A stretch of 64,000 bases of DNA from contig JADKHO010000002.1 in NCBI GenBank assembly GCA_016721765.1, positions 927,141 through 991,140 on the forward strand, read 5' to 3'. Shown here in pieces: positions 12,941 to 43,563 of this stretch (positions are counted from its first letter, which is position 1; the number at the start of each line of letters is the position of its first letter). This DNA comes from Bacteroidota bacterium (GTDB lineage Bacteria; Bacteroidota; Bacteroidia; UBA4408). Both the position numbers and the translations under genes were made by a program. A model generated the notes under the pieces. It was not told where the DNA came from. It saw only the letters and a program-made list of their open reading frames with translations, and did no database searches.

Positions 12941-12980
12941 AGAAAAGCCTTGCAAGAGTGAATCTTACAAGGCTTTTTTC
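12941..12980 (+). terminator. Hairpin AGCCTTG(n15)CAAGGCT + T6 immediately left of the att repeat
   Basis: A 7-bp stem is followed by TTTTTT, and it abuts the attL copy. Confidence 0.4.
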
Positions 12981-12995
12981 GAGCGGTCCGGACGG
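12976..12995. repeat. attL: 20-bp direct repeat TTTTCGAGCGGTCCGGACGG (duplicated 3' end of tRNA-Asp + 8 nt flank)
   Basis: It is identical to 43544..43563. The last 12 nt equal the 3' acceptor/T-stem end of the tRNA-Asp gene at 43552..43625. Confidence 0.75.
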
Positions 12996-13234
12996 CTTGA
13001 TATTCAGCACTTTAGCTACCTTTTTGCTTCTTTAATGCTTCCTGAATTGCCTGATTCTAAAGGCTTTCTATTTTTTATACCCAAATGGGTTACATACGCT
13101 TTTTAGATTTTTCGTAATCCCACACGTAATCCGTTTTTTGGCTCCTGAGTTAATAAATATACTTGGCAAAGCCTATGTTCTATGGTACCTTAGCTAATGA
13201 AGCGTCAAAGTTAGCGCCTTAAAAATCAAAGATA

Positions 13235-14608
13235 ATGAATATTAATTTCCATCCAAGAAACCTTACAAAAAAAACACCTCAGCGTATTTGGGCTATATTT
13301 TATGCCGAAAAAAACAGAATCGCAATTGACACTAATCTGTTTGTTTCACCCAAAGATTGGAGCAGAAAAAAGAAGTGTTATTTAAGCACAAATGCCAACT
13401 CCGAAAAGCTTAATAAAATTCTTAAAGAGCAAAAAAAGCAAATTGAAATTTATGCAGAGGAATTGCTCAGTCACTTGATGAAAAACAAAAAGCGTTTTTA
13501 CAAAGATGAATTTGAAAAAGAGTTGAAGGAAAAATTCGACTACTACTTCAAGTTTGGTGAAAATAAGCCGGAAGAAAAAGGTGAAGTATATGACTTCATC
13601 AGCTTTATTGATAAATACATTTCCAATCGAATGGAACTATGTGAAGGCACACATCAAACACTTCGTGGCGCGAGGAAAAATATTGTTTTGGCATTCAATC
13701 TTGCGCCAGCTAAACTGGTAAAAAAATGGAAAGCAATGAACAATTTTGAGCGAAAATTAAACCCTGATTTCTTGGAAGCTGAAAAACAACTTGACTTTTC
13801 TGAAATTAACAAATCATGGATGATGGCTTATAATACTTGGTTGATAAATGCTAATTATAGAGATAAGAACAAAGAGACCGGAATCATGGAGAATATGCCC
13901 TATTCGAAAAATTACATTGCGAAGGAAATAAAAATTGCAAAGCAATTTGCGAATGCAGCTGCCGATGAAGGGTACATAAGTAATTTAAGTTATAGAAGTG
14001 TAAAAGCGCAATGGGAAGAAGCAGATACAATTGCCCTATCATGGCAAGAAATTGCAAAACTTAAAGCATTAGAACTTGACCCGAATACTACAGAAGGTAA
14101 GGTAAGAAACCTATTTGTTTTTAATTGCTATTGCGGCTTACGATGGAGTGATTTAGTGCGCCTCGACAATAGCCGATTCTCAAGAGAAGGCAATCAACTG
14201 TTTCTAAGCATTCGCATGAAAAAGACAGATACATCCATTGGATTTCCAATTCTACCGGCTGCCGAAGAAATAATGAGAATTTATAATTACCGACTACCCA
14301 ACGTTTGTGTGCAAATATTTTGCGAAAAGATTAAAAAAATCTGTTTGAAAGCCGGTATCACAGAATTGGAAACCAAGCGTGAAACAAGAGGTGGAAGGAA
14401 ATTAATCTTCTCCATTCCCCGCTATAAAATGGTAAGCAGTCATACTGGAAGAAGAACATTTGCCACCAATTTTGAAGCAATGGGAGTAGCCTTAAATGAA
14501 TTGATGGCAATTACAGGACATACAACCGAAAAGGCATTTCGAAAATATGTAAAGAAAAGAGTGGAAACCAAATTTGCAAGTTTCTTAGCTGCGGGTGCAA
14601 CTGTATAA
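13235..14608 (+). CDS. Tyrosine-type site-specific integrase (Bacteroidota Arm-DNA-binding N-domain + SAM-like + catalytic domain)
   Basis: The C-terminal catalytic motifs are HTGRRTFAT...H..EKAFRKYV (R, H-x-x-R and the Tyr nucleophile region). The N-terminus resembles the Bacteroidota integrase arm-binding domain. Confidence 0.85.
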   Translation: MNINFHPRNLTKKTPQRIWAIFYAEKNRIAIDTNLFVSPKDWSRKKKCYLSTNANSEKLNKILKEQKKQIEIYAEELLSHLMKNKKRFYKDEFEKELKEKFDYYFKFGENKPEEKGEVYDFISFIDKYISNRMELCEGTHQTLRGARKNIVLAFNLAPAKLVKKWKAMNNFERKLNPDFLEAEKQLDFSEINKSWMMAYNTWLINANYRDKNKETGIMENMPYSKNYIAKEIKIAKQFANAAADEGYISNLSYRSVKAQWEEADTIALSWQEIAKLKALELDPNTTEGKVRNLFVFNCYCGLRWSDLVRLDNSRFSREGNQLFLSIRMKKTDTSIGFPILPAAEEIMRIYNYRLPNVCVQIFCEKIKKICLKAGITELETKRETRGGRKLIFSIPRYKMVSSHTGRRTFATNFEAMGVALNELMAITGHTTEKAFRKYVKKRVETKFASFLAAGATV

Positions 14609-14652
14609 CTAACTCAAATCAACAAAAAATCAACTAAACAATTACCATAACC

Positions 14653-15276
14653 ATGAATACAATTAAAACAATAACGCTCATTTGTAAATGCTGCGATCGA
14701 GAATTTATTCCAACCCGAATGGATGCAAAATTCTGTTCCGGTGCTTGCAAACAAAAAGCTTACAACCGAAGAGTGAAACAAAACATTTTAAAATACGGGA
14801 ATAATTGTTCAGCCCCAGAAAGGCAGCGGATTGACAGAATAAATGCCATTGAAATAAGGTTAGAACAGAAACTAAAGGAAAGTAGCATAGCCCCTACCCC
14901 AGCCACCGAAGATATTTCAAAATCAATGGAAGCGTTTTTCGCTAAAATGAAGCAGGATGATGAAAACAGAAAAGTCAAAGACGCCAATCAGCGCTTGAAA
15001 GAATGCCTGAATGAAATTTTGGAATATTCGCAACAAGAAGAAATTTCTCGATGGAGACTTATTTCACTTTGTAATTCCGTTGAAAGAAAGCTCGGAACAA
15101 GAATTTTTTCGTTGCCTATTGGATACAAATACACCTGCTTTATTAATGATACCTTATTACCAAAGGTAATGAATTTAAGGGATGTACTTAATAATTCAAA
15201 CGAGCGATATGTAAAAATGGAATTACACGAATTTCTTGAAAAACAAATTATAGAAATATTGAGCCAATTGGGATAA
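14653..15276 (+). CDS. Hypothetical protein with N-terminal zinc-ribbon (CKCCD...CSGAC)
   Basis: Four Cys are arranged CxxC...CxxxC within the first 35 aa and the rest is helical and charged. It lies immediately downstream of the integrase. Confidence 0.35.
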   Translation: MNTIKTITLICKCCDREFIPTRMDAKFCSGACKQKAYNRRVKQNILKYGNNCSAPERQRIDRINAIEIRLEQKLKESSIAPTPATEDISKSMEAFFAKMKQDDENRKVKDANQRLKECLNEILEYSQQEEISRWRLISLCNSVERKLGTRIFSLPIGYKYTCFINDTLLPKVMNLRDVLNNSNERYVKMELHEFLEKQIIEILSQLG

Positions 15277-15420
15277 TGCAGATTTAGAATTCTTTTGATT
15301 TATTAAAGTTTTTACCAACTAATTCAATAATTGAGAGTGATCAAATAGGGTTTGTTTTAGCGGAATTCCCAATCTTGTCAAAAAAACTATTATTGAAATT
15401 TATAAACATTTTGGGGGTTA

Positions 15421-15948
15421 TCAATAGACCAAAAAATAACTAAGGCCTACAAATTTTCCGTTAGTAATAATAACTGTATCGTGTATGGTAGGCTCTACTA
15501 AAGTACCTGAAAATGTTCCACTCACTTTATGGCTTATGCTGTCATTGGCAGTTATCTGTACTGAAGCTGCAAAAGCTACGTAATTATCATAGTAAACACC
15601 TGCTACCGTGCGCGACAATTCAACGGATGCTGTTGGATAACTCATTTGTGTTGCTGGTAGACTTAAATTTATTCCCGGAAAAGTAAAACCAAATCCAACG
15701 AAGTTTGAATCAATTATTCCCCCACAAACTAAAATTTTGAAATTTGATAAAGTATCAATGTAAAATGGATTGTTATCGGCTGAATCAGTATTAAAAAGCG
15801 TCCCATTTAAATTGCAGGAAAATTTTTTTAATGCTGCTGTGCTTGGTGGAATTTTAGCATCTTCCGATGAAGCAGGATTTTGTTCGTCTTTTTTGCATGC
15901 GCAAAATATCAGAATAAAAGAAATTATAATTATTTTTGTTATTTGCAT
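15421..15948 (-). CDS. Hypothetical lipoprotein
   Basis: It has a signal peptide with a lipobox-like Cys (ILIFCAC). Confidence 0.35.
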   Translation of the reverse strand: MQITKIIIISFILIFCACKKDEQNPASSEDAKIPPSTAALKKFSCNLNGTLFNTDSADNNPFYIDTLSNFKILVCGGIIDSNFVGFGFTFPGINLSLPATQMSYPTASVELSRTVAGVYYDNYVAFAASVQITANDSISHKVSGTFSGTLVEPTIHDTVIITNGKFVGLSYFLVY

Positions 15949-15952
15949 CTTA

Positions 15953-16519
15953 TTAATTTATAAAAATCGAGTTAAAGAAATTATTTTTTAAAATACTCAA
16001 ATCGGTTTCTCTTCGTTTTAAACCTATTAAAATAAAAGTATAAATGTCATGTCCGTTGTAGTAAATTCTTGTATGAAGTTCCTTTTCTGTTTGGTCTTCC
16101 TCATCAATATATGCCACACCAATTTCAGCACATTTTAAGTTTGTATCAGCTTGTTCAATAAGGTTGAAATAAAGTTCTGTTGTGCTATCGTGTAAGCTTT
16201 GGAACATAATACGATTCAAATAAAGTGGGTCGGCTAATGAATCGTTAGCTTGCATATAGTTTGAGTCATCTGTCGAAATGCCTTGATTCATAGACGCTCT
16301 AAAGGATGAATCAGATTTTACAAACTGAATAAAATACTGAGTACTATCAACATCTGATTCAGCAACGAATAATAATAACCCTAAAGTGTCGAGTTCTTTA
16401 GATGGAGGAATTGAAATGTCAAATCCAAATACAGGATTAGTATTTCGAATTTGAAAAGTAGATTGAGGAAACGATGATTCGCAAATAAGTAGTGCAACAA
16501 AAAGGAAATATTTTTTCAT
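15953..16519 (-). CDS. Hypothetical secreted protein
   Basis: It has a signal peptide (MKKYFLFVALLICESSF). It lies 4 nt from the downstream gene start and 1 nt from the upstream gene stop, so it sits in an operon. Confidence 0.35.
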   Translation of the reverse strand: MKKYFLFVALLICESSFPQSTFQIRNTNPVFGFDISIPPSKELDTLGLLLFVAESDVDSTQYFIQFVKSDSSFRASMNQGISTDDSNYMQANDSLADPLYLNRIMFQSLHDSTTELYFNLIEQADTNLKCAEIGVAYIDEEDQTEKELHTRIYYNGHDIYTFILIGLKRRETDLSILKNNFFNSIFIN

Positions 16520-16520
16520 T

Positions 16521-18512
16521 TTATTTAGACTTAATAAGTTTTAATGATTTGGTTTTCCCATTAATCTCAACTGTTACAAGGTAGAAGCCCTTGTCTAGTG
16601 CCTCTGTTGAAAAACTCAAAAGTGAATTTGATTCACTCACCAAGCCAGAGGAAAGTATCTTAATTAATTTTCCTTCAATCGACCTAAGTTCAATGGTAGC
16701 CCAACAAGGCATTTCAATAGAAAGATTTAAATTTATGTTTTCATTAAATGGTACTGGAAAGGCTGTAGCTTCAAAATTAATATTTACATTCTTTTGCTGC
16801 TTTAAATTTGACAAAACCGAATTTGAAATGGATTTTGCCGAAAGTTTTCTTTCAAAAACATCACCGTCATCAACACATTCTACATCATCAATGTGGGCAT
16901 AAAAATTTGCTTGTGCATCAACGGTAAAATTCGTAGTTAAATCAATGCTTTTTCCCGCTCTATATTCAACATCTCCAGAATTTGAAATATGGTTGCTTGC
17001 AGTTATTGTATTATGACTTATGATATCAGCTGGGTCACTTGAACTCCCATAATTTGATAAAGTTGGAAAATCAGTTATCATGGTATTATTGTATAAATCG
17101 TAAAAATACTTCTTTGTTGGCTCATTCTTAGTTAGGCATACTAAATTATACAATACCATATAATCTAATCCATGATACTCTCCAGGAAAATCAGGGTCAC
17201 ATTCACCTCTTCTTTCAGGTTCAACTAATAAAGTTGATGAAGACCAATTGTAACTTTGGTATAATACAGTATTACAATCTTCACTAAAGTTATAAGGACC
17301 ATAACACGGAGCTTCATCCAATAAATTTCGGTAATATGGATTACCATGCCAATCCGCTATTCCGTATAAATACTGATTAAGAAGTGGTAGGTCTACTCTT
17401 GGATGCTTATGGCTTAAATCTGTACTATAAAGGTTTATTTTAGCTCCAAATGGAAGGACATGATTATTATTTACATAATAAGGTCCTGAAAATGTCAAAC
17501 ACTCTAAAAATTTCAGCCCTTGACTTGACCAGAATACAAAGGGCGCACCAACCATATATTTATAAACCTTTTCTAGTTTTTTCCAAGCTTGATCAGCGGT
17601 TTTAATAATCTTGGTAGGATTATTATGGTTCGCGAAATTTAGATTGGCAAACGAAAGTGCGGGAGCTTGTAAATACGCACTTGCTGTACCGTTAAGGGTA
17701 GGCGTGCCAGTTGGATCATATATACGCCAATTCCATGGTGTATTAACTAATGTACCAGAATGGTGGATATAATCAATTATTCGTTTCATTATTTCTTTTG
17801 CTTCATTAGAAAAACTATATGGACCATCCATAAAATTTAAACTCGGGCTAACAGAAGAGGGCATTTTATTTATTAATACATTTAATGCCATATATAAATG
17901 AAGTACTTGATCAATACTCATTTCAAATTCAGGAAGCATATGCTCCTTGGATGCTATCCACATAGCACCTAAATTATCAATACGAGAATTTTGTGATTTA
18001 TTATTCAAATGATCTATAACCGATTGATATGATGTATTATTTTTTTGGTGAAGCGCATCATCCCAACAATTAAAACACAAATCCTCCCTCATTAAAAATC
18101 CATTCAAAGATGTAGTAAATCCCCACCATGACTCGCAATAATGATCGAGTCTATTTATTGCCTCAACAGCGTAATATAATTCATTTAATGTAGCATCAGT
18201 ATTTTGACCGTTTTGTGTTAATAAATCATATTCTGTAACTAAAGCTATTATATAGTAAGATAATGTTATAGTTCCATCAGCACCTTCTTCCCATGTGCCT
18301 CCTGGAGTAGGATGGAAATCTGTTCTAAAACTTGCCGGTATGCTCTCGCCATGTCCAGCGCCAATATCAAGCATAAATTTTGTCCTAAGCCTCTCTCTGT
18401 AATACCAGTATTTTAATTGCCTTTGCTGGTCATCGGATATTTGTGCAACTGCAAAGTGTTGCAAAAACAAGAAAAAAATAAAAATCAATAATAAATTTCG
18501 TTTCATATTCAT
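16521..18512 (-). CDS. Hypothetical secreted protein with T9SS C-terminal sorting domain
   Basis: It has a signal peptide. The C-terminal ~80 aa (ATIELRSIEGKLIKIL...GFYLVTVEINGKTKSLKLIK) is a T9SS type-A CTD. Confidence 0.5.
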   Translation of the reverse strand: MNMKRNLLLIFIFFLFLQHFAVAQISDDQQRQLKYWYYRERLRTKFMLDIGAGHGESIPASFRTDFHPTPGGTWEEGADGTITLSYYIIALVTEYDLLTQNGQNTDATLNELYYAVEAINRLDHYCESWWGFTTSLNGFLMREDLCFNCWDDALHQKNNTSYQSVIDHLNNKSQNSRIDNLGAMWIASKEHMLPEFEMSIDQVLHLYMALNVLINKMPSSVSPSLNFMDGPYSFSNEAKEIMKRIIDYIHHSGTLVNTPWNWRIYDPTGTPTLNGTASAYLQAPALSFANLNFANHNNPTKIIKTADQAWKKLEKVYKYMVGAPFVFWSSQGLKFLECLTFSGPYYVNNNHVLPFGAKINLYSTDLSHKHPRVDLPLLNQYLYGIADWHGNPYYRNLLDEAPCYGPYNFSEDCNTVLYQSYNWSSSTLLVEPERRGECDPDFPGEYHGLDYMVLYNLVCLTKNEPTKKYFYDLYNNTMITDFPTLSNYGSSSDPADIISHNTITASNHISNSGDVEYRAGKSIDLTTNFTVDAQANFYAHIDDVECVDDGDVFERKLSAKSISNSVLSNLKQQKNVNINFEATAFPVPFNENINLNLSIEMPCWATIELRSIEGKLIKILSSGLVSESNSLLSFSTEALDKGFYLVTVEINGKTKSLKLIKSK

Positions 18513-19039
18513 TAACTTTTAAAATGTATCCAAATATATTTTCCATTATAAGTTAGTTCAAGCCAAAGTTCACTTTTAGTTAGTCGCTTAATTCTATATT
18601 CAACATAATCATCCGTAAAAAATGGCCCAACTTCCTTATACTTTAAGTTTACAATGTCTGAAGTTCGAATAATATTCATAATTAAATATTTTCCATTTTC
18701 GCTCAGCTTATAAGAACCTGGCAGATGAGAATAATAGATAGACCCTGTAATATTAACTCGCACATCAATTGGTGCGTAATTAAAACAAGTTCCATCACTT
18801 GGCTCAATAAATTTTGCTCTAAATTTATTATCAATTATGCCTAAAGCTTTATAAACCGCCTCTGTAGAATCAATGCCATCAATATAGATATAAGAAAGCG
18901 TCCATGTCCTTTCTAGCCTTTTACATTTAGAAGTAAAACTAATTAAGGGACCTTCTTCATATTTTCTTTTACAGGATGCCAATACTGCAAATGCCATTCC
19001 TAGAAGAAAAAAAAATTTAATTCTAACTTTAAAATTCAT
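18512..19039 (-). CDS. Hypothetical lipoprotein
   Basis: It has a signal peptide plus a lipobox (VLASC). Confidence 0.35.
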   Translation of the reverse strand: MNFKVRIKFFFLLGMAFAVLASCKRKYEEGPLISFTSKCKRLERTWTLSYIYIDGIDSTEAVYKALGIIDNKFRAKFIEPSDGTCFNYAPIDVRVNITGSIYYSHLPGSYKLSENGKYLIMNIIRTSDIVNLKYKEVGPFFTDDYVEYRIKRLTKSELWLELTYNGKYIWIHFKS

Positions 19040-19040
19040 G

Positions 19041-22000
19041 TTATCTTAATTTTTCAATCTCAATTTTCAACAAGTCATTTTCCTTTTTAAGCTCAATCAT
19101 ATGCAAGGTAAGTTCCTCAACACTTTTTAATAGTTTCACTTGCATTTCTAACAAATCTACACCATTTTCTTGTGCTTCACATTCTGTTGGCATATCGGGT
19201 AAATGTTTGTTTTTTGCAATGAAAGCTTCAAGTTCATTTAGTGGCATCCTTTTATAATTTTTGTCAAACACATAATCTGCCCAACCTGCAGTTGCACCGA
19301 TATCTACCTTCACTCTTTCTGTTCGTATTCCGTGTGTAACGTACAAATCATAATCTGCTGAAAATCCACCTATTTTAATATCCTTACCTATACCAACTTT
19401 ACCGGTAGCAGTAATAATCATTTTAACATTTTGTAAAACTGAGGCATCTGTAGTAGTAACTTCACCGGAATTGTCACCCGGTATTGTTGCAAATCTTAAG
19501 TCACCTGCAAGTGACCCCATTATTACTGATGCCCCATTTCCTGAATTGTCTTTAAAGGTCCAAGTTCCAGCTTCTGAATTTGCTGCCTTTTGGCGTGCGG
19601 CATTAAAACCTAAATAATTGGTTATCCACTCATTTCCATAGCTCCAAAATCCACCCATCGAAATGCTACCAACCCCTTGTCCTACCTGAAATTGAGCATT
19701 TGGGGCATTATTACCAATTCCAACATTACCAAAACTATAATTATTTGCATTATCCAAAAAAGGTTTAATAAAAATGGAAGGTTGATTCGGATCACCAAAT
19801 AATGTTTTTCCATTGGCATTAATCGAAAAAACTTCATTATTTAAATTATTGGCTTTTAGAAAGCCTCCTATTAATTTTGTTACAGTAGAACTAGATATTA
19901 ATTGGGCAGTGTATGCTGGATCACTAGAGGTTTCAACTCGCAGCCCTTCTTCTCCCATAGGAGCAATTACATCTAAATAAGTGGATGGGATGCTTGTTCC
20001 AATACCCACTCTACCGGATGGCCTGTAAACATTAACACCATTCGTTTCCCATAAGCCAATTCCATTGAGCGTATTGGTGGAAACATAACTCAGTTTCCCA
20101 TTCGCATCCGATTGAACTAAATTATATGCATTTGGTCCATTTGCTAATCCCGAAATTCGCACCTCCCCTTGTACATCTAATTGTTCTTGCGGGTCATCGG
20201 TTCCAATTCCCACATAACTTGTGGTTAAAATACTTCCATCAAAAAAAGGTTTTATAAATAATGAAGGTTCGGTTGTTGTAACATCACTACCAATTCTTGT
20301 TTCACCATCTCCTTTAATTGAAAAAAGTTCTTGATCCCAACTTCCGTTAAATGAGGTGCCGCTTATTATTTTAGTGCGTATATCATATACCGAGAGTTGG
20401 GTGTTTTTTTGAGGATATAATCCTCCATTTGGCGTAGTTGTTAAAACTTTTAAGCCGGTATTTGCAACTGAATTAATGTTTGCTGTTACTTCCGGTGAAC
20501 CGCTTGGCACATAAGGGCCACCTATTTCAAAATGTTTTCCAACTCTAACTACCCCAGAGTTATAACCAGGATCTGTATTTGTGCAAATGGAAACGTCTCT
20601 TCCACAAAAATAATTTATTAAAAGCCCGTTGTTTGTGCCCCCATTATTATCGGTGCCTTGCACATCAATTAATCCACTTCCATCCCAAGGTGCCGAACCC
20701 ATTATTAGCGCTGAATTGGTGCTTCCTATAGGGTTGGATGGAAGTGAAGTCATAAATCCTTCAAATAAAAATTTGGTATTTGTCCCACCCAAATTTGGGC
20801 TAATACAGGTAGGCGCATTGGCATTGACTCTTCCAAAATACACTGTTTTTTCGCCAGCTATTGAGTCACTTATAATTTTTAAAGTTTTTGATGGATTTAA
20901 AGCTATCCCTGCTTCGGCACTTATTAATTTACTAAATTTTGTTCCGCTCGAAGTAAAACGCATTGTTTCGGAATTAAAACGCTTAAACACCAAATCTTTA
21001 TTATCAGCTGTACCAATATATTGGGTGGTGGGGTCAATACCTGTGTTACCGGACATTGACCAATCCTCACGCTCGGGTGCTATAATAAAAGCTGTTTTTT
21101 CGGTGGTACATCCTGCTGCATCCACTATCGCAACGGAATAAACACCTGCCGCAAGATTATTCGGGTTTTGAACATGCGAACCATTATTCCACGTATAAGT
21201 ATAAGGGGCTGTACCACTTGTTATAGATAAATTAATACTACCGTTGTTACATGTATTACATGATGTGTTTTTGTTATTAGAATATACAAATGGAGTTGCT
21301 GTTGCTGAAATTTCAGGCGATCGTGTCATTGATATATAAGCCCTATCTTCAGCACCATTTGCATCCATAACCAAGACGCCATAAACTCCTTCCTCTAATA
21401 CATCAGTTACATTTTGTGTACTTGGTCCATGCTCCCAAACAAAAGAGTAGGAATTAGTCCCACCTGAAACTTGTAAGTTAATAGAGCCGGCTATTCCACA
21501 CCCTATATTGTAATTTCCAACAACTTTAGGACTAGTAATACTTACAATATGTAAGACAGTTGGTTCAATTAAAGTTACGCTACCAAATGCTGTACAATTA
21601 GTAGCATCATGCACGGTAATTGAATAAGTTCCGGCACTTACATCAGTTATATTATCACTAGAAGTACTTCCATTGCTCCATAAATAAGTATAAGGTGGCA
21701 CACCTCCTGAAACTTCAACTTTAACTTCACCATCACTCCCACCATTTTCGGAAATATGATACCCACCATTTTTTTCAGTTGGAATTAAAGCTGCATTAAA
21801 TGGCTCAGGTTCAACCAAACCAATAGCCCTAACTACACTTGCCCCATTTGATGCAGTTACTGTAACACTATAGTCGCCTGCAATCAAATTTGAACGATTC
21901 CTTGTTGTAATTCCGTCATTCCAAACATAGGTGTATGGGGCGACTCCACCTGTTATAAACAAATTAATTGAGCCGGTGTTTGCACCGTGGCAACTTATAT

Positions 22001-22118
22001 TATAACCACCGACATACAAAGAAGGTGTTAACTGCACATCAAATTCCTGAGCGCTTACTGCTGAACTAAATAAAAGCATTAAAAATGCAGTTCTAAAAAG
22101 AAAGGATAATTTTTTCAT
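19041..22118 (-). CDS. Large secreted SprB-repeat protein with tail-fibre-like C-terminal coiled-coil domain
   Basis: It has four SprB-type repeats (GGVAPYTYVWNDG, GGVPPYTYLWSNG, GGTNSYSFVWEHG, GTAPYTYTWNNG). The C-terminus (WADYVF...HLPDMP...coiled coil) resembles the Bacteroidota 'tail fiber domain-containing protein' C-terminal module. Confidence 0.5.
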   Translation of the reverse strand: MKKLSFLFRTAFLMLLFSSAVSAQEFDVQLTPSLYVGGYNISCHGANTGSINLFITGGVAPYTYVWNDGITTRNRSNLIAGDYSVTVTASNGASVVRAIGLVEPEPFNAALIPTEKNGGYHISENGGSDGEVKVEVSGGVPPYTYLWSNGSTSSDNITDVSAGTYSITVHDATNCTAFGSVTLIEPTVLHIVSITSPKVVGNYNIGCGIAGSINLQVSGGTNSYSFVWEHGPSTQNVTDVLEEGVYGVLVMDANGAEDRAYISMTRSPEISATATPFVYSNNKNTSCNTCNNGSINLSITSGTAPYTYTWNNGSHVQNPNNLAAGVYSVAIVDAAGCTTEKTAFIIAPEREDWSMSGNTGIDPTTQYIGTADNKDLVFKRFNSETMRFTSSGTKFSKLISAEAGIALNPSKTLKIISDSIAGEKTVYFGRVNANAPTCISPNLGGTNTKFLFEGFMTSLPSNPIGSTNSALIMGSAPWDGSGLIDVQGTDNNGGTNNGLLINYFCGRDVSICTNTDPGYNSGVVRVGKHFEIGGPYVPSGSPEVTANINSVANTGLKVLTTTPNGGLYPQKNTQLSVYDIRTKIISGTSFNGSWDQELFSIKGDGETRIGSDVTTTEPSLFIKPFFDGSILTTSYVGIGTDDPQEQLDVQGEVRISGLANGPNAYNLVQSDANGKLSYVSTNTLNGIGLWETNGVNVYRPSGRVGIGTSIPSTYLDVIAPMGEEGLRVETSSDPAYTAQLISSSTVTKLIGGFLKANNLNNEVFSINANGKTLFGDPNQPSIFIKPFLDNANNYSFGNVGIGNNAPNAQFQVGQGVGSISMGGFWSYGNEWITNYLGFNAARQKAANSEAGTWTFKDNSGNGASVIMGSLAGDLRFATIPGDNSGEVTTTDASVLQNVKMIITATGKVGIGKDIKIGGFSADYDLYVTHGIRTERVKVDIGATAGWADYVFDKNYKRMPLNELEAFIAKNKHLPDMPTECEAQENGVDLLEMQVKLLKSVEELTLHMIELKKENDLLKIEIEKLR

Positions 22119-23236
22119 GAGGTAGCGTTTTAGTTATAAATTGGGATAAAAGGATTGGCGATACAAGGTTGAACAAAGGATTTTGGATTGTCAATACTCA
22201 AAAAGGATGATATTTGAGTGATTACAAAAAAGGCGCTTGGAAATTGCTTAGAAAGAGAATGGGTAGTTCTTATCATGTAGTTCGGTTTTAAAAATTAAAA
22301 CTCCAACCTTACATTTTTCACTCAATTTTTTAAGTGAAAATCCTTCTAAGTAAAAAGCCTAAATAAAATGCATTTGGGCGATGAATTATTTGATGGGGTC
22401 AATTAAAGAAAAATAAATTGAAATGTCAATCCGTATTTCTACGGAAAATTCAATTATTTTTTGGATAGCTACAAACCAATGATAGAAAGGAATCAAACAA
22501 TTTATTTGCGAATATCGCAAATTTTTGTTTAAATTTTTTTCGGCAGATTTGATAAAACAGGAGCAAAATATTGGCGATTTTAGCGGGAACGAAAAGCAAG
22601 AAAAAAACTCCCTTTTTTTTAGAAATAAAACATGCCATTTTTTACTTCCAATTCATTTAATAATTTTCTTTGAGCGGCTAATTATTTATCTAAGCATGAA
22701 ATAGATTTAAGGCAAAATACTCCTGTCGCAAATTGTTTTTTGCATTGTTGCCTGCAAGCTTTTATAATGGCTAAACCCAATTTCATTTTTCTGGATTCTG
22801 AATTAGAGCGATTTTGATGTTATAACTTGTTGTAGCAAGATAACTGCTAAAGATTTCTAGGCATTTTATTTTCGAAAAATCAAATAGCTGCTTTTATACT
22901 TTTATTTCAAGCTTTAACTAAGCTATTCCTAATCAAACAAAAATAATTGCTGGCTTTTCGAAGAAATTTCGAATAGCTCCCAAACGATTACTCAATTCAA
23001 ACACAGTTTAACTCGATGTGAATTAAAAATAACGGACTTTATCCAAGCAATTCTAGACTTCTCACTTAAAATAATGGATTGTTGCCAATGTATTTCTGAT
23101 AATTTGAAGCTTTTTGGAGCATATTACAAGAGTTTTTCTAAAGTGTAACCTGTTTGCATAGTATTTTAATGTTATTTAGATGGCATTTTTATGCCTTTTA
23201 CATACCATTTACATAGATTTTAATGTTATTTACAGG

Positions 23237-23380
23237 CTTATCCGTAACAATAACACAGTTTTATACAAGAATTACAGACTTATCCGTAACAATAACACGG
23301 TTTATCACATTAATAACTCATTTATCCGTAACAATAATTCATTTTTTCGAATCAATTACAGACTTAGCCGTAACAAATAA
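23237..23380. repeat. Iteron array: 4 copies of (A)CAGrCTTAtCCGTAACAAtAA at exact 42-bp spacing
   Basis: The copies start at 23237, 23279, 23321 and 23363. They lie in a 2-kb non-coding region between divergent genes. Confidence 0.7.
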
Positions 23381-24080
23381 GTGCTGTAAACTACTGAATT
23401 TACACGGTTTTATGAAATGGGATGATAAATTCCACGCATTTTAGCTTAGTGTCGCTCACATTTGAATTAGGCAATTGCTAAAAGATATCATTTTCACCGT
23501 TTCCTGACTTGCGCATTTCCATTTCAGAAAACAAAAAAACTCAAGCCAAATTTTGCTTTTTGTGTTTTACAATTTTCGAATATTTTTCTCCCCCATTTTC
23601 CAAAATCTGACGGAATTTTCCGGTCCCGTTTTTTGCAGAAATCGCAAAAATAGTTAGCAATCATTTACCAGCGTTGAGCTACAGCTATTTTTAAGATAGT
23701 TGCATTTTCCGTATTTCTACGGATTGATAATTCGATTATTTTTTTATTGCTTTAGCGGGATTTAATTTATTAAAGTGGCTAGGGATAAATTTGAGTTCTT
23801 TGAATTATTTTGATAAATAACATTAAAACAAGCTGAAAGCAATAATAAAAGTGGATAAACTATCTTGATAAATTTTTTAAGACCTAATAATGCACTTTAT
23901 TTTGGGTAAATAGGGATTGAAAATATAAAATATTCTTTTTGAAAGCACCTGAAAAATATTATGATGGAATAGAGTGGATAATTCCAATAATTACAGATTT
24001 AGTGTCTGATAAATTATCAGCAAAAGAAATAATTAAAAAAGTAATCACAATTATTCAAACAATAAATAAATAAATAGGTC

Positions 24081-30332: not shown

Positions 30333-30335
30333 TTT

Positions 30336-31041: not shown

Positions 31042-32754
31042 ATGGCGGAATTACATGTAAGTAGAAAAACGATCAGCAAATTACTAAGTGAAATGCAAGG
31101 AAGAAGGTTTATTATTCCAGATTTTCAACGCCCTTATAGATGGGACATAGAAAAATGTGAAACTCTTTGGAACGATATTATTAATTTTTTTGAAAATGAT
31201 CCAGAAGACACGGAATATTTTTTAGGAACCATTGTTACTGCTGAAAATGAAGAAAAAAATCCAGAAGTAATTGATGGACAGCAACGACTTACTTCGCTTT
31301 TTTTAATGTTAAGAGCTTTTTACAAGAAGTTGGAATCAATGAAAGATGATGATGATGTATTAGGTCTTAAAATGCAAGTAGGTCCATGTCTTTGGGATGT
31401 ACATTCAATATCTAAAAAAGTAAGTGATTTCAGTAAAATACATATATATTCTGATGTTGCAACCGATAGCGATAATCAGGTATTTCATAACATACTAGTT
31501 AAAGGTGAAGTAGAGAAGGCTCATGAAGATAATTATTCAATTAATTATCAATTTTTCAAAAGCTCTTGTGATGAATACGCAAAATCTAAACCGACAAAAT
31601 GGTATAGCTTATGTGTGGCAATACTAAATAGATGCATTATATTACCAATTGAATGTGATAAGCAGGAAACTGCCCTTACAATTTTTTCAACATTAAATGA
31701 TAGAGGGCTTCCTTTGGCAGACTCTGATATTTTTAAAGCTCAAATTTATAAGAACTATAAGTCTTCGGCTGAAAGAAAGGAATTTACTGAGCAATGGAAG
31801 CAGCTTACTGAAGTTTGCACTGAAGCTAATATTTCAATAGATGATGTCTTTAGGTATTATACTCATATTTTAAGAGCTAAAGCGAATGATAAAACAAAAG
31901 AGGTGGGCTTAAGAAAGTTTTATGCTCAAGATTTCTATTCCAGATTAAAAGAGGAGAACTGTCTTTCAGAAATTATTAAACTCTCTAATTTTTGGTGGTA
32001 TATTAATAATTATGAAAATCCTGCTGATTACCTTGAAGAAAATGAACCCTACCAAATCAGTACTTCAGCATTCAGATATATTCACGTTCTTATGAACTAC
32101 CCAAATGAATATTGGAAATATGTTACCAGTGTTTATTACTATACAAACAGAGTAAATGAAAATTTTAAAGATGATTTTGAGATATTCCTGAAACAACTTA
32201 TTGCATTTTTATTTGCAAAATTTATTGAACAGCCTACTGTAAACGCAATTAAAGATGATATTTATAGCGCTTGCATTTCAATTAGTTATGGAAACGGCTT
32301 AGGTCTTTACTACAATTTTTCTCAAGCCTATTTAGCTAATCGATATGAAACATTTTCTAGTTCTAAAATCAGCAAAGGCTTATTGCTACTTGACGCTTAT
32401 TTACATCCTGATCAAAAAGACTACATAAAAAAAGAAGTTGAAATTGAACATATATTTCCTAGGAAATGGCAATCTACAAATTACTTTGGATGGAAAGAAG
32501 AAGATGCAAGGGATTACTTAGACAAATTCGGAAATAAAATTGTTTTTGAGAAGAAACTAAATATTCAGGCCGGTAATGGTTATTTTAAGCGGAAGCAAGA
32601 TAAATATAGGTCTTCGGAAATTTCAGTTGTTAGAGATTTGGCAAACTATCAAAATAATGATTGGACAAAAGATGATATTGAAAAGCGTGAAGCAATTTTA
32701 AAAGATAGATTGATTGATTTTTTCAATAGTTTTATAAATGTTGGCTCTAAATAA
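31042..32754 (+). CDS. GmrSD-family type IV (modification-dependent) restriction enzyme, DUF262 + DUF1524
   Basis: The N-terminal DUF262/ParB-like motif is FIIPDFQRPYRWD...IDGQQRLTS. The C-terminal DUF1524 His-Me finger is EIEHIFPRKW. Confidence 0.8.
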   Translation: MAELHVSRKTISKLLSEMQGRRFIIPDFQRPYRWDIEKCETLWNDIINFFENDPEDTEYFLGTIVTAENEEKNPEVIDGQQRLTSLFLMLRAFYKKLESMKDDDDVLGLKMQVGPCLWDVHSISKKVSDFSKIHIYSDVATDSDNQVFHNILVKGEVEKAHEDNYSINYQFFKSSCDEYAKSKPTKWYSLCVAILNRCIILPIECDKQETALTIFSTLNDRGLPLADSDIFKAQIYKNYKSSAERKEFTEQWKQLTEVCTEANISIDDVFRYYTHILRAKANDKTKEVGLRKFYAQDFYSRLKEENCLSEIIKLSNFWWYINNYENPADYLEENEPYQISTSAFRYIHVLMNYPNEYWKYVTSVYYYTNRVNENFKDDFEIFLKQLIAFLFAKFIEQPTVNAIKDDIYSACISISYGNGLGLYYNFSQAYLANRYETFSSSKISKGLLLLDAYLHPDQKDYIKKEVEIEHIFPRKWQSTNYFGWKEEDARDYLDKFGNKIVFEKKLNIQAGNGYFKRKQDKYRSSEISVVRDLANYQNNDWTKDDIEKREAILKDRLIDFFNSFINVGSK

Positions 32755-35700
32755 ATGAAATTCACGGAAGAAAAATTAGAGAGAGCATTTATCGAATTGT
32801 TAGGGCAAGAAGGATTTCCCTACCGATTAGGCAATACTTTAACTCGTAAGTCTGAAGAAGTATTGATAGAAGAAGATTTACAAAACTTTCTTTTAACACA
32901 ATACGCTGGGCAAGGCATTACAGTCAATGAAATCAAATCTATTATTCTTCAACTCAAATCGCTTTCCGCTTCCGACCTTTATGAAAGCAACAAAACATTT
33001 TTAAAAATGCTTTCAGACGGTTTTATTCTCAAACGAGAAGACCGCAGCCAAAAAGATATTTACATTCAGCTTATCAATTACGCAGGACTAAACAAACACC
33101 GCCAACCTGATGCAGCCCAGTTAATTTCTATTGCTGCCGAACCCGAAGAAGTTTATCCACCAGACAATAACATTTACAAGTTTGTAAACCAATTAGAAAT
33201 TATTGGTTCAGAAAAACGTATTCCTGATGGTATTGTTTATATCAACGGTTTGCCTTTGGTGGTATTTGAATTCAAATCTGCCATTCGTGAAGAAGCCACT
33301 ATTTTCGATGCTTTCAAGCAATTAACGGTTCGTTACCGCAGAGATATTCCTGAACTGTTTAAATACAATGCTTTTTGTGTTATTAGCGATGGCGTAAATA
33401 ACAAGTCAGGTTCATTCTTTGCCCCGTATGAGTTTTTCTATGGCTGGCGCAGAGTGGCAGGTTTGGCAAAAGATGTGGACGGCATTGACAGTATGTTTAC
33501 ACTCATACAGGGAATGTTTCACAAAAACCGATTACGAGATATTATTCGCAACTTCATTTACATTCCTGATAGCTCAAAGAAAAATGAAAAAATTGTTTGT
33601 CGCTATCCGCAATACTATGCAGCAAGAGCATTATATGACAATATCAAAAAAGCCCAAAAGCCCGAAGGAAACGGAAAAGGTGGAACTTATTTTGGTGCCA
33701 CAGGATGCGGAAAAAGTTTTACTATGCTTTATCTCACAAGATTGTTGATGAAGAGCGAATACTTTGAAAGTCCGACTATTGTTTTAATAACTGACCGTAC
33801 CGATTTAGATGACCAACTTTCGGGACAATTTACCAATGCTAAAAATTTCATAGGCGACAATACTGTTGTAAGTGTGGAGAGCAGGGCCAATTTGAGAGAA
33901 TTAATTCAAGGCAGACAAAGCGGAGGCGTTTTCTTAACCACGATTCACAAGTTTACGGAGGACACACAACTTCTTACCGATAGACCAAACGTGATTTGTA
34001 TTTCTGACGAAGCTCACAGAAGCCAAGTAAACCTTGACCAAAAAGTAAAAGTTACCGAGAAAGGCGTTACCAAAACTTATGGCTTCGCCAAATACTTGCA
34101 CGATTCATTGCCCAATGCCACATTTGTTGGTTTCACAGGAACTCCCATAGATGCAACGTTGGATGTATTTGGGAAAGTGGTGGATGCTTACACAATGACC
34201 GAATCGGTGAAAGATGAAATCACTGTGCGGATTGTTTATGAAGGCAGAGCAGCAAAAGTGTTGTTGAACAATTCCAAACTCAAAGAGATTGAAGATTATT
34301 ACGCCAAGTGTGCTGAAATAGGCAGCAACGAAAATCAGATTGAACAGAGCAAAAAGGAAATGGCACACATGTATGCCATCATTGGCGACCCTGACCGTTT
34401 AAAAGCAGTTGCCGAAGACTTTGTAAACCATTATGAAAACAGAGTTTCGGAAGGTTCAACCGTGAAAGGCAAAGCAATGTTTGTGTGTAGCACTCGTGAA
34501 ATTGCTTATGAGTTGTATAAAAACATTATTGCCCTAAAACCCGAATGGAATGAAATACTTGCAGCAGAAGAAGGAGCAGAACTCACCGACAAAGACAAAC
34601 GAGAACTAAAACCCATTGAACGAATAAAGTTGATTGCCACCCAAGGAAAGGACGATGAAAAAGATATGTATGATTTGTTAGGCACAAAAGATTATCGCAA
34701 AGAACTTGACAGACAATTCAAAAATGAAAAATCGAATTTCAAAATCGCAATAGTAGTTGATATGTGGCTCACAGGTTTTGATGTGCCGTTCTTGGATAGC
34801 ATTTACATTGACAAACCTATTCAACGACATAATTTAATTCAAACTATTTCAAGAGTAAACCGCAAGTTTGAAGGAAAGAACAAAGGTTTGGTTGTGGATT
34901 ATATCGGCATCAAAACACAAATGAATCTGGCCTTGAAGCAATACAGCGAAGGCGACAAAGATAATTTTGAAGACATTGCTGAATCTATAATCATTGTAAG
35001 AAATCATTTAGACCTTTTGGCTAAACTGTTTCACACCTTTGACAATTCAAAATATTTTAAAGGCACTACTATTCAGCAATTAAATACGTTGAATTTGGCT
35101 GCTGAATATGTGCAACAAAGCAAAGACTTTGAAACCCGTTTTATGGGCTTGGTAAAGCGACTAAAAGCCGCTTATGATATTTGTGCAGGAAGCGAACAAT
35201 TAACTCAGTTAGAAAGAGATTACACACATTTTTATTTGGCAGTTCGTTCTATTGTTTTCAAACTCACCAAAGGTAATGCACCCGACACAGCACAGATGAA
35301 CGCTAAAGTTCGGGAAATGATAAAAGAAGCGTTGCAAAGTGAAGGTGTAGAAGAAATTTTCAAGCTCGGTGATGAAGCAGAAACCGAACAAGACATATTT
35401 GATGAAGATTATTTAGCGAAAATTGATAAAATCAAATTGCCGAATACTAAAATCAAATTGCTTCAACAGTTATTGGCTAAAGTGATTGCAGAAATTAAAA
35501 AAGTAAATCGTGTAAAAGGAATTGACTTTACTAAAAAGATGCAAGCTCTTGTTGAACGCTACAACAACCGTGATGTAAATGATATTTTGAGAAGTGAAGT
35601 GTATGAGGAAATGGCAAACGCTTTGACAGACTTGATTTGGGAAGTTCACAAAGAATTTGCAGCAGGAGACGCTTTAGGAATTGACTTTGAAGAAAAAGCA

Positions 35701-35967
35701 TTTTACGACATTCTTAAAGAACTGTGTGTAAAATACGACTTCAAGTATCCTGATGACAAAATGATTGACCTTGCAAAAGCTGTGAAAGACTTGGTTGATG
35801 GACAAGCCAAATTTCCTGATTGGAATAAACGTGATGATATTAAATCAGCTTTGAAAGTTGGTTTGATTTTATTATTGGATGAGTTTGGTTATCCACCGGT
35901 GGAAAGGGATGAAGTGTATGTAGAGATTTTTGAACAGGCGGAGAATTTTAAGAAAAATAAAATTTAA
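32755..35967 (+). CDS. hsdR: Type I restriction enzyme R subunit
   Basis: It has an N-terminal HsdR_N, an SF2 helicase motor (GTGKS-like Walker A in ATGCGKSF and DEAH-box ISDEAHRSQ) and a C-terminal helical domain. It is 1070 aa and its start abuts the gmrSD stop. Confidence 0.9.
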   Translation: MKFTEEKLERAFIELLGQEGFPYRLGNTLTRKSEEVLIEEDLQNFLLTQYAGQGITVNEIKSIILQLKSLSASDLYESNKTFLKMLSDGFILKREDRSQKDIYIQLINYAGLNKHRQPDAAQLISIAAEPEEVYPPDNNIYKFVNQLEIIGSEKRIPDGIVYINGLPLVVFEFKSAIREEATIFDAFKQLTVRYRRDIPELFKYNAFCVISDGVNNKSGSFFAPYEFFYGWRRVAGLAKDVDGIDSMFTLIQGMFHKNRLRDIIRNFIYIPDSSKKNEKIVCRYPQYYAARALYDNIKKAQKPEGNGKGGTYFGATGCGKSFTMLYLTRLLMKSEYFESPTIVLITDRTDLDDQLSGQFTNAKNFIGDNTVVSVESRANLRELIQGRQSGGVFLTTIHKFTEDTQLLTDRPNVICISDEAHRSQVNLDQKVKVTEKGVTKTYGFAKYLHDSLPNATFVGFTGTPIDATLDVFGKVVDAYTMTESVKDEITVRIVYEGRAAKVLLNNSKLKEIEDYYAKCAEIGSNENQIEQSKKEMAHMYAIIGDPDRLKAVAEDFVNHYENRVSEGSTVKGKAMFVCSTREIAYELYKNIIALKPEWNEILAAEEGAELTDKDKRELKPIERIKLIATQGKDDEKDMYDLLGTKDYRKELDRQFKNEKSNFKIAIVVDMWLTGFDVPFLDSIYIDKPIQRHNLIQTISRVNRKFEGKNKGLVVDYIGIKTQMNLALKQYSEGDKDNFEDIAESIIIVRNHLDLLAKLFHTFDNSKYFKGTTIQQLNTLNLAAEYVQQSKDFETRFMGLVKRLKAAYDICAGSEQLTQLERDYTHFYLAVRSIVFKLTKGNAPDTAQMNAKVREMIKEALQSEGVEEIFKLGDEAETEQDIFDEDYLAKIDKIKLPNTKIKLLQQLLAKVIAEIKKVNRVKGIDFTKKMQALVERYNNRDVNDILRSEVYEEMANALTDLIWEVHKEFAAGDALGIDFEEKAFYDILKELCVKYDFKYPDDKMIDLAKAVKDLVDGQAKFPDWNKRDDIKSALKVGLILLLDEFGYPPVERDEVYVEIFEQAENFKKNKI

Positions 35968-39194: not shown

Positions 39195-39217
39195 TTGTCT
39201 TCTATTAAACCTATAGT

Positions 39218-41843: not shown

Positions 41844-42199
41844 AGAAGAATTAATATTTTCAATTAACATTTTACAAAAACTTAGGGATCATTTGAAACA
41901 GAACTCAAATAATAAGGAGTTAATCGAAAGAACATTGCAAAAATTAAGGGATAAAAAATTGGATTTAATTCTTACTGAGTTTATCTCAGGTGAGGAAGAA
42001 ATTATTTAAACAGTACTAAATCCTCCTGCGCCCAAGTGTTCCTTTTTGAGGGTGTTTTTTTAAAAAACTACAACCTCCGAAAGCCTTGATGCTAAATGAA
42101 ACCCGTTGGTTTTAGTCGGACAGCGATGTAATTACCGCTCAAGCAAAAAAACAATGTTATTATATTTTGTTTTTCATAATAACATTGTATATTTGCATC

Positions 42200-42907
42200 A
42201 TGAAAGCTCAAAAGAAGATTACAATAAAACCATTTCTAAATCAGAACCTGATACCGGAATGCACTGATGGTAGCGGAAAAAACTTTTATCCCTTATACAT
42301 ACAAATTACCTACGACCGCAAAAACACACAAATTCGCAGTAAGTATGGTATGTATTACGAAACGCTGAACGATCCGGGATTATTTAATCTAATTGCCTTT
42401 GAGTCGAACATCCTTCAAAAAATCATACAATTTGAGACAAAAAATAGCGATTGCGAATACGATTTAAGAGGGCTTAAAAACAAATACACTACTTACAGCA
42501 CATCTATTCACTATGCGGTAAGCGAATACCTCAAAGAAAAGCTTAAATGGGCAATCAAGCGAACTAACAATGAGCTAATGCATGTTTTAAAATTTGAGGG
42601 CTTTAAATCGGGTTTTGATAATCTGTACAAGGCTTCACAATTGTTATTTCCCAACTTGAAAGAAAAAATTACTCCTGAGTTTAAAAAAGAAATTGAAGCC
42701 TTTCATTTACTGAATAAGCTCCACCCCATTGGCAGCGGGGAATATTCCTTCGCAGCCTTAATCGATTGGAAAGACAATAGTTTTAAATCAAAATTTGAAG
42801 CGAGTTTGAATAAGGAATTGAAACAAAACAAAAAACAAGTGTCCGAAACGCTTGCTATTATTGATAAAATCGTTGCTGAAAATTTGAAAAGTATAGAGGG
42901 CGCTTAA
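42200..42907 (+). CDS. Integrase N-terminal (Arm DNA-binding + SAM-like) domain-only protein; truncated integrase or recombination directionality/regulatory factor
   Basis: ITIKPFLNQ...YPLYIQITYDRKNTQIRSKYGM matches the Bacteroidota integrase arm-binding domain. It is 235 aa with no catalytic R-H-R-Y region. Confidence 0.45.
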   Translation: MKAQKKITIKPFLNQNLIPECTDGSGKNFYPLYIQITYDRKNTQIRSKYGMYYETLNDPGLFNLIAFESNILQKIIQFETKNSDCEYDLRGLKNKYTTYSTSIHYAVSEYLKEKLKWAIKRTNNELMHVLKFEGFKSGFDNLYKASQLLFPNLKEKITPEFKKEIEAFHLLNKLHPIGSGEYSFAALIDWKDNSFKSKFEASLNKELKQNKKQVSETLAIIDKIVAENLKSIEGA

Positions 42908-42984
42908 AAAAATTTACTAAATATGTTCGTATTTTTTTTATATTATAATAACAGTAATTAGACTGAGTAAAAGTCAAGAAATTA

Positions 42985-43365
42985 ATGACTCCTGAATTAA
43001 ATAAAATTTTCAAAGCTCTTGAAAAGGAGATAACTGCAATAGTTACCAAAAAGGTAACAGCGCAGCTGAGGGAATCTTATGTGGAGGATGTTAAAGCAAT
43101 AGTAAAGGATTGCTTGAAAAACAATGAATTTATAAATGAAGCAGGTTCAGGTTTCATTACCATTGAAGCACTTAGTAAAAAATATGGGGTAAGCAGAAAA
43201 ACAGTAACTGATAAATGCAAGCAATTCAATGAAGGTTTCTTAAAAATTGAGCGCAAGTGGGTGAATGGACACCATACAGTAAACGAAAAACAATATGTGG
43301 AGGCTTGTGATCATTCCTCAAGAAAAGGGAAACCGAAATTTATCTCCAAGCAAAAAGCAGCTTAA
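42985..43365 (+). CDS. Small helix-turn-helix DNA-binding protein (excisionase-like), adjacent to attR
   Basis: ITIEALSKKYGVSRKTVTDKCK is an HTH. The protein is 126 aa and is the last gene before the tRNA/att site. Confidence 0.4.
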   Translation: MTPELNKIFKALEKEITAIVTKKVTAQLRESYVEDVKAIVKDCLKNNEFINEAGSGFITIEALSKKYGVSRKTVTDKCKQFNEGFLKIERKWVNGHHTVNEKQYVEACDHSSRKGKPKFISKQKAA

Positions 43366-43543
43366 TCACCCTAATTTTAGTCGCAATTCAAAAAGTTATC
43401 AACAGTAGTACTAGCGCTACTCTCCCACTCCACCACCTTCTACAAGCCAATAATATCAAGGTTTTTTATAAAACGTCATCCAGCACGTGATCCGCATCAA
43501 ATCAAAAGCCCTTAAGTAGTTGATACTTAAGGGCTTTACGAAA

Positions 43544-43563
43544 TTTTCGAGCGGTCCGGACGG
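43544..43563. repeat. attR: second copy of 20-bp direct repeat TTTTCGAGCGGTCCGGACGG overlapping the tRNA-Asp 3' end
   Basis: It is identical to 12976..12995. Confidence 0.75.

Follow-up and report, generated by a model that had tools for sequence, protein, structure and literature searches.

The question raised by this locus is whether the DNA between two identical 20-bp repeats in a 64-kb stretch of Bacteroidota DNA (the window) is a single mobile element, and whether the tRNA-Asp(GTC) gene at the right-hand repeat was its target. A ~30.5-kb integrative element at tRNA-Asp had originally been predicted here, and this prediction is supported by homology breaks in two related loci (L083 and L093), by synonymous divergence and by the layout of a wider integrase family. 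Positions 12996-43543 are accordingly read as one integrated genomic island, inserted at the 3′ end of tRNA-Asp by its own tyrosine integrase, with a probability of roughly 85%. The features at the two ends are as follows.

12943..12977, minus strand: terminator-like hairpin, 15-pair stem followed by a T-run (terminator scan), directly outside the island
12976..12995, minus strand: tRNA-distal attachment (att) repeat, a displaced tRNA-Asp 3′ fragment (13 nt) plus 7 nt of downstream sequence; L083 homology from 12983
12996..13234, plus strand: integrase-side arm (P arm), doubled 8-mer at 13113-13132; 96% identical to L083
13235..14608, plus strand: tyrosine integrase, 457 aa; Pfam Phage_integrase and Phage_int_SAM_5 above cut-off
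42200..42907, plus strand: ~235-aa stand-alone protein, 246 aa from the called start at 42167; Bacteroidota family without a name
42985..43365, plus strand: 126-aa protein with a weak helix-turn-helix (HTH); sub-threshold HTH_11, HTH_28 and DUF6398 matches; L093 homologue 94% identical, frameshifted
43366..43543, plus strand: tRNA-side arm (P′ arm), doubled 8-mer at 43474-43493; hairpin at ~43504-43535, now downstream of the tRNA
43544..43563, minus strand: tRNA-proximal att repeat, provides the 3′ end of the functional tRNA-Asp
43551..43625, minus strand: intact tRNA-Asp(GTC), the integration target (ARAGORN; Rfam tRNA 64.9 bits)

Repeats, tRNA-Asp gene and integrase

As predicted, the window contains two exact copies of the 20-mer TTTTCGAGCGGTCCGGACGG, one at 12976-12995 and one at 43544-43563. 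No third copy with up to two mismatches was found in the 64 kb, where the expectation from shuffled sequence is 0, and the 13-nt tRNA portion of the repeat has no third copy in the window either; a common dispersed repeat, named beforehand as part of the outcome that would speak against an element, is thus not what is seen. ARAGORN and Rfam both called one intact tRNA-Asp(GTC) on the minus strand (43551/2-43625; Rfam model positions 1-71 of 71), complete and with its final 13 nt within the repeat. The right copy had been described as forming the 3′ end of this gene. The intact gene is there, but only 12-13 of the 20 nt (43551-43563) belong to it, beginning in the 3′ strand of the T-stem and running from the T-stem/acceptor-stem junction through the discriminator; the remaining 7 nt (43544-43550) are sequence directly downstream of the gene. 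At the left copy (12976-12995) no tRNA was called by ARAGORN; it has the same orientation as the right copy, and the sequence departs from the tRNA immediately after the repeat, so its description as an orphan tRNA 3′ fragment in front of unrelated sequence holds. The hairpin at 12943-12977 beside this fragment is as expected if the original tRNA end was displaced together with its terminator, and presumably is that terminator.

The integrase open reading frame (ORF) begins 239 bp inside the left copy, in agreement with the 240 bp given originally. Its Arm-DNA-bind_5 match scores 18.5 bits, below the cut-off of 22.6; many members of the family carry an annotation for this domain. R303, K330, H403, R406, H429 and Y438 are invariant when 28 integrase family members are aligned; with this full set of tyrosine-recombinase residues the enzyme is predicted to be catalytically intact. 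No solved structure related to this clade was found in the PDB at an E-value ≤0.01. Relatives on sequenced Bacteroidota plasmids are only 25-31% identical, and IMG/VR viral contigs held none.

The P arm contains a doubled 8-mer, CGTAATCC-N4-CGTAATCC (13113-13132). When the window was searched for this pattern with up to two mismatches, the sole other site was CGTCATCC-N4-CGTGATCC at 43474-43493, 51 bp from the right repeat and on the same strand. In every sibling element an 8-mer is doubled at 12-bp spacing about 110-120 bp upstream of the integrase, its letters varying with the integrase, and the order doubled motif, hairpin, core is found also in L093, at its end, and in L092, on the left side of the fragment. 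From their position and recurrence the doubled 8-mers are probably arm-type binding sites, and both arms of the attachment site would then be intact in the window.

Related elements and the history of the island

An integrase 97% identical to that of the window was found in Joint Genome Institute (JGI) and Logan contigs L083-L086, and L083 (Ga0499979_0000089) provides the main comparison. Its nucleotide homology to the window runs from 12983, at the tRNA fragment, to 22215, and restarts at 43551, at the 3′ end of the tRNA, from where it continues into the adjacent host gene (DUF58). The sequences left of the fragment are unrelated, with DUF2442, SBBP-repeat and DAO-Rieske genes in the window and TIM, PrmA and a cyclic-oligonucleotide-based antiphage signalling system (CBASS) in L083. 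The L083 element is ~10.7 kb long, compared with 30.5 kb in the window, and contains the integrase, a 207-aa gene and a surface operon, with a response regulator at the place where the window has a 21-kb defence block. Compared at third codon positions, window and L083 have an identity of 0.83 in the integrase, 0.99 in the 207-aa gene and 0.96 in a 175-aa gene, but of 0.56 in the host DUF58 gene. The integrase-side module thus appears far younger than the split of the hosts, which is a signature of horizontal transfer, and the comparison indicates that this transfer was recent.

Sequence similarity within the shared module is uneven. Its outer parts are 85-97% identical to L083 at the protein level, whereas the three middle genes of the surface operon (window 15953-19039, L083 12725-15831) are only 37-59% identical, which suggests either cassette exchange or diversifying selection on exposed proteins and makes the island a mosaic.

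The right boundary is marked independently by L093, the end of a 314-kb NCBI contig (CAXWOL010000003.1), which matches window 42141-43546 at 88% over the ~235-aa gene, the 126-aa gene and the arm; the homology stops at 43546, at the start of the 20-mer. Three parts can therefore be told apart: a 9.2-kb integrase-side module common to L083 (integrase, 207-aa protein and SprB-repeat surface operon), a 21-kb defence-carrying block present only in the window island, and a 1.4-kb tRNA-side backbone common to L093 (~235-aa protein, HTH protein and arm).

Such a composition could also have arisen by fusion of two tandem tRNA-Asp islands, an L083-like one with the integrase and surface genes and an L093-like one with the defence genes, from which the internal junction and the second integrase were later deleted. 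L083 homology covers 12983-22215 only and L093 homology 42141-43546 only, the join coincides with 2 kb of gene-free sequence, L092 seems to have elements in tandem, and tandem arrays at tRNA genes (tDNAs) are well known (PMC4383910). However, the window has a single integrase and a single orphan fragment, its core sequence has no additional partial copy, and the doubled motif of the right arm matches that of the integrase-side arm, so that the two ends look cognate. We regard such a fusion as possible but somewhat doubtful. It concerns the history of the locus and is compatible with a single island at 12996-43543, which may now act as one unit.

The layout at the left end recurs beyond the closest siblings. 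In six more distant integrase relatives a hairpin and an orphan tRNA fragment are followed, after ~230 bp, by the integrase, and an equivalent hairpin precedes the orphan fragment in all siblings. L087, L090, L091 and L092, with integrases 49-65% identical, have an orphan tRNA-Asp fragment 225-250 bp upstream of the integrase, in each case a terminator hairpin followed by GCGG[T/A]C[C/T]GGACGG, with the tRNA-Asp match breaking off at an identical base in all of them. Another relative, L088, is complete and 4.3 kb long; it lies in tRNA-Arg(TCT) and is bounded by a 15-bp repeat. All clade members examined have the integrase beside the displaced fragment and so at the opposite end from the intact tRNA. 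As judged from these loci, this is a clade of integrases from uncultured Bacteroidota with a consistent attachment-site layout. At L092, a second doubled motif (ACGTCCCC twice) and a hairpin were observed at 9700-9800, to the left of the orphan tRNA-Asp fragment; this suggests the tRNA-side arm of a neighbouring sibling element in tandem array.

That the two 20-mers match by coincidence or as a dispersed repeat, with no discrete element between them, has a next to negligible chance. Nothing but the diffuse left edge in base composition (see below) would favour it; against it stand the two copies where none is expected by chance, boundaries at which, exact to the base, the homology of two independent relatives breaks off, and the family-wide recurrence of the architecture.

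For a single island, the following course of events is proposed. A circular element would have carried an attachment site composed of 43366-43543, the core and 12996-13234, which matched the last 13 nt of tRNA-Asp (plus 7 nt) and recombined with the chromosomal gene through the element's own integrase, with the crossover at the T-stem/acceptor-stem junction. The tRNA would stay intact because the island supplies a replacement 3′ end: its copy of the last 13 nt, together with the right-end hairpin, would keep tRNA-Asp functional, and the original end with its terminator would have been pushed 30.5 kb away, to its present place 239 bp upstream of the integrase. The integrase-side module has spread recently between lineages, and the defence block would be an exchangeable payload gained inside the island.

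Evidence on excision and transfer

Several observations weigh against the proposed single island. First, base composition marks only one of its edges. The interior had been described as more AT-rich than the flanks, and its GC content (0.334) is indeed lower than that of positions 1-10700 (0.392) and of the right flank (0.386), but low GC (0.322) extends 2.3 kb past the left repeat (10701-12975), so that composition supports the right edge, sharply, and leaves the left edge unsupported. Second, the exact empty junction that is predicted (left flank, 20-mer and tRNA) gave 0 matches in genome and metagenome contigs. The junction of fragment and P arm, expected from a sibling or a circular form, gave 0 matches in metagenome contigs, a collection from which the JGI samples of L083/L084 are evidently absent. 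Even the nearest relatives available have diverged too far for the left flank to be shared. Third, no relaxase, conjugation or phage genes were found in Pfam, PHROGs and NCBIfam scans of the island ORFs, and no excisionase was identified with confidence. Fourth, the contrast between host and element divergence is based on a single host gene of 750 nt (DUF58). Finally, L083 has neither the tRNA-side backbone (~235-aa and HTH genes) nor the doubled motif of the right arm, and it is bounded by a perfect 91-bp direct repeat (9670-9760 and 20398-20488; 13 nt of tRNA plus 78 nt of downstream sequence), compared with 20 bp in the window. Both features suggest that these elements rearrange beyond the simple model.

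The AT-rich segment 10701-12975 contains a DUF2442 gene and two adjacent ORFs, 40 bp apart, that resemble one split SBBP-repeat gene secreted by the type IX secretion system (T9SS); the first (285 aa) has a signal peptide and the second (251 aa) a sorting domain. Possibly, an earlier insertion at this site left the segment behind. A search near the GC step at 10.7 kb for another, decayed tRNA fragment found none.

For the empty site, 80 loci with DUF58 homologues were examined. DUF58 is kept beside tRNA-Asp in 13 of these (6 with thioredoxin too); past the tRNA each of the 13 has a different sequence, and for many this is where the contig stops. The nearest available relatives are 85-88% identical at the amino-acid level in the flanking DUF58 gene, and relatives of the DAO-Rieske gene of the left flank (≤74% identity, source genome aside) do not keep its neighbourhood. 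Outside the source metagenome-assembled genome (MAG), the organism was met only in Logan run SRR11673995. Among the DUF58 relatives L003-L039, several MAG contigs end within a few hundred bases after tRNA-Asp, and the downstream genes of the others are all different; in this group, tRNA-Asp appears to be a general hotspot for variable DNA at which metagenome assemblies break.

The failure to find a circular form or an empty site in contig collections bears on another explanation, that of a genuine former island which is now fixed, can no longer excise or spread, and retains repeat and integrase as relics. The lack of a confidently identified excisionase, the lack of transfer genes in the family scans and the loss of the tRNA-side arm in L083, by which family members are seen to decay, would fit it as well. 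Yet the repeat is perfect (20/20), the full-length integrase ORF encodes every catalytic residue, both arms have the doubled motif, and near-identity to L083 at synonymous sites argues for movement much later than the host split. We consider a fixed relic unlikely. It too is compatible with an island inserted at tRNA-Asp by its own integrase; we infer that the island can still excise.

The two small genes at the tRNA side may help to control recombination. An integrase-arm-domain-only ORF had been predicted at 42167-42907; no sequence similarity to integrases was detected for this ~235-aa protein. Its family, made up of stand-alone proteins, has 798 cluster representatives, and its gene is likely to be part of the island backbone. 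Three contexts of the family were examined: two are tRNA-Asp islands with unrelated integrases (the window and L094/L095), and the third is the L093 contig end. The other gene had been called Xis-like. It is present, but all HTH matches of the 126-aa protein are sub-threshold and the gene is absent from the closest sibling; its structure model (predicted local distance difference test, pLDDT, 50) was unusable, and the protein is a candidate regulator or excision factor. No conserved excisionase was found among the siblings, where the genes beside the integrase or at the tRNA side vary.

The L094/L095 island, from an uncultured Cytophagaceae MAG, resembles that of the window in several respects: it is at tRNA-Asp, has a homologue of the ~235-aa protein (40% identical) between the integrase and an HTH_17 gene, carries defence-type cargo (reverse transcriptase, HipA, HEPN and NB-ARC) and has an orphan tRNA-Asp fragment 172 bp upstream of its integrase. 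In contrast, this integrase is distant (23% identity over the catalytic part), and the fragment is 43 nt long and reaches the anticodon loop, so that the crossover subsite differs from that of the window. Its 235-aa and HTH genes lie beside the integrase, whereas those of the window are at the opposite end, yet they would become neighbours if the window element were circularised, with the ~235-aa gene across the attachment site (attP) from the integrase. The ~235-aa family might be an integrase-derived DNA-binding protein minus the catalytic domain which, with the HTH protein, forms a recombination-control or directionality module of Bacteroidota tRNA-Asp islands. We think this quite unlikely; if true, islands lacking transfer genes would be a widespread platform that shuttles exchangeable defence blocks.

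Other classes of mobile element were considered from the same family scans. An integrative and conjugative element (ICE) was rejected as no relaxase, coupling or mating-pair (type IV secretion or Bacteroidota Tra) genes were found, an NBU-like integrative and mobilisable element (IME) as no relaxase/Mob family was matched, and a prophage or phage satellite as no capsid, terminase, portal, tail or primase/packaging-hijack genes were found. Across all sizeable ORFs, replication functions were likewise without a match in Pfam, PHROGs and NCBIfam, as were relaxase, coupling protein and type IV secretion and the phage functions capsid, terminase, portal and tail. The named PHROGs matches were to integrase families and, marginally (E 0.008), to an HNH endonuclease for the 207-aa protein; the rest were to families of unknown function. 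That the locus is nevertheless an ICE, IME, prophage or phage satellite and not a plain island is very improbable: site-specific integration at a tRNA with the integrase at one end would be shared with such elements, a 418-aa protein matches a phage orthologue group of unknown function and iteron-like repeats at 23230-23376 could be an origin, but hallmark genes are lacking in the Pfam, PHROGs and NCBIfam scans and the integrase has no relative in IMG/VR viral contigs.

Cargo and comparison with known systems

Gene content was analysed by three Pfam scans and by PADLOC, PHROGs and NCBIfam. The features between the ends are as follows.

14653..15276, plus strand: 207-aa protein, N-terminus rich in Cys; nucleotide sequence 98.6% identical to L083; no significant family match
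15421..22118, minus strand: five-gene cell-surface operon, encoding among others an SprB-repeat protein (1025 aa) and a protein (663 aa) whose T9SS C-terminal sorting domain is a sub-threshold match
22119..24080, no strand: gene-free AT-rich 2-kb stretch, no ORF ≥80 aa, GC ~0.30; start of the block absent from L083
24081..25590, plus strand: three tandem ThsB-like TIR genes; Pfam ThsB_TIR; PADLOC ThsB best E-value 1.6e-68
25853..28565, plus strand: type I restriction-modification (R-M) genes hsdM (25853-27415) and hsdS (27399-28565); Pfam N6_Mtase, HsdM_N and Methylase_S; PADLOC MTase_I and Specificity_I
28573..31031, plus strand: predicted Thoeris type III, comprising TIR (28573-29754), SLOG ThcA (29736-30332) and TIR (30336-31031), between hsdS and hsdR
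31042..32754, plus strand: GmrSD-family restriction endonuclease; Pfam GmrSD_N and GmrSD_C
32755..35967, plus strand: hsdR, type I restriction subunit; Pfam HSDR_N, SWI2_SNF2 and T1RH-like_C; PADLOC REase_I 1261 bits
36332..41843, plus strand: five genes with no assigned function in family scans (418, 331, 156 and 262 aa, and a 471-aa HNH_5 protein)

The interior had been described as loaded with defence genes, and type I R-M, Thoeris type III, GmrSD and ThsB-like TIR genes were indeed found. With HsdM, HsdS and HsdR all encoded, the type I R-M system is predicted to be complete. Thoeris type III has been defined by an SLOG-only ThcA together with a TIR protein, ThcB (bioRxiv 10.64898/2026.01.22.701046). 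In the window, ThcA scores 250.7 bits against NCBIfam Thoeris_type3_ThcA (NF058525; cut-off 110), Pfam LD_cluster3 and TIR_2 and, on the TIR proteins, PADLOC ThsB models were matched, and TIR genes lie on both sides of ThcA; by these family matches the module is assigned to Thoeris type III, which it resembles in ThcA score and TIR genes, and it is simply cargo. The Thoeris type III and GmrSD set lies between hsdS and hsdR (25853-35967). Just upstream are the three ThsB-like genes at 24081-25590, which have no ThsA-type partner of their own.

A T9SS-cargo operon had also been predicted. The five-gene operon is present and its SprB match is strong (110.8 bits, Pfam), but the sorting-domain match (Por_Secre_tail, 24.2 bits) is below the cut-off of 27.

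Defence islands are known in which type I R-M loci carry other defence genes between hsdS and hsdR. The window cluster is of this kind, its R-M locus being interrupted by Thoeris type III and GmrSD near three ThsB-like genes; it differs in lying inside a precisely bounded integrase island. As the block is absent from the L083 island at the same site, it appears to be an exchangeable payload and not a chromosomal hotspot.

NBU1 and NBU2 are mobilisable elements of Bacteroides that are integrated at the 3′ ends of tRNA-Leu and tRNA-Ser, respectively, by a tyrosine integrase with Arm-binding, SAM-like and catalytic domains; they carry a mobilisation gene and an origin of transfer (oriT) and are moved by conjugative transposons. 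The window island is likewise a Bacteroidota element at a tRNA 3′ end with a tyrosine integrase, probably of this domain make-up, but no relaxase or mobilisation gene was found in it, and its cargo consists of defence and surface genes.

Endpoints of tDNA islands have been mapped by Islander through the regenerated target and the displaced fragment, with a ‘J’ subsite at the T-stem/acceptor-stem junction (Hudson, Lau & Williams 2015, PMC4383910). In the window, an intact tRNA and a fragment in the same orientation at the far end lie in the same replicon with the integrase between them, the 3′ end of the target is regenerated and the 13-nt fragment fits the J subsite. A difference from Islander tDNA islands is that the integrase is at the end far from the intact tRNA, beside the displaced fragment.

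The element thus belongs to an ordinary type: it is a genomic island integrated at a tRNA and serves as a defence island, here within an unstudied lineage. This kind of island is very common, and the current understanding of genomic islands is unchanged by the finding. It does provide a base-precise example of how anti-phage systems travel, since the same integrase island is found at tRNA-Asp in two lineages, with and without the 21-kb defence block. The candidate arm sites could help to find more islands in MAGs, where contigs often break at tRNA-Asp, and new functions in defence or recombination control may reasonably be sought among the genes at 36332-41843, the 207-aa protein and the ~235-aa family.

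Some further observations were made on the cargo and on the host side. The 207-aa gene was not found beside more distant integrases. In the gene-free stretch 22119-24080, ~6.6 copies of a 21-bp repeat, TTATCCGTAACAATAACAC, are located at 23230-23376, and the palindrome TCCGTATTTCTACGGA occurs in two copies ~1.28 kb apart, near 22432 and 23710. No Rfam match was found in this stretch, which could be an origin, a regulatory region or a decayed gene. The genes at 36332-41843 gave no Pfam, PADLOC or NCBIfam match except HNH_5 and phrog_8999. A 43-nt inverted repeat (81% complementary; 37596-37638 and 42112-42154) brackets a 4.5-kb cassette encoding the proteins of 331, 156, 262 and 471 aa (HNH_5). 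Its right arm is within a 110-bp non-coding block (42040-42149) that is 80% identical to L083 2205-2313, at the edge of the CBASS island and outside the tRNA-Asp element of L083. This block has no Rfam match and folds no better than shuffled sequences; an exchangeable defence cassette may have its boundary here. The spacer between DUF58 and thioredoxin (44635-45129), on the host side of the tRNA, is filled by several tandem arrays with units of 8 bp and 42-50 bp (e.g. GTTATGTCATCCTGAGCGTAGTCGAAGGAGG).

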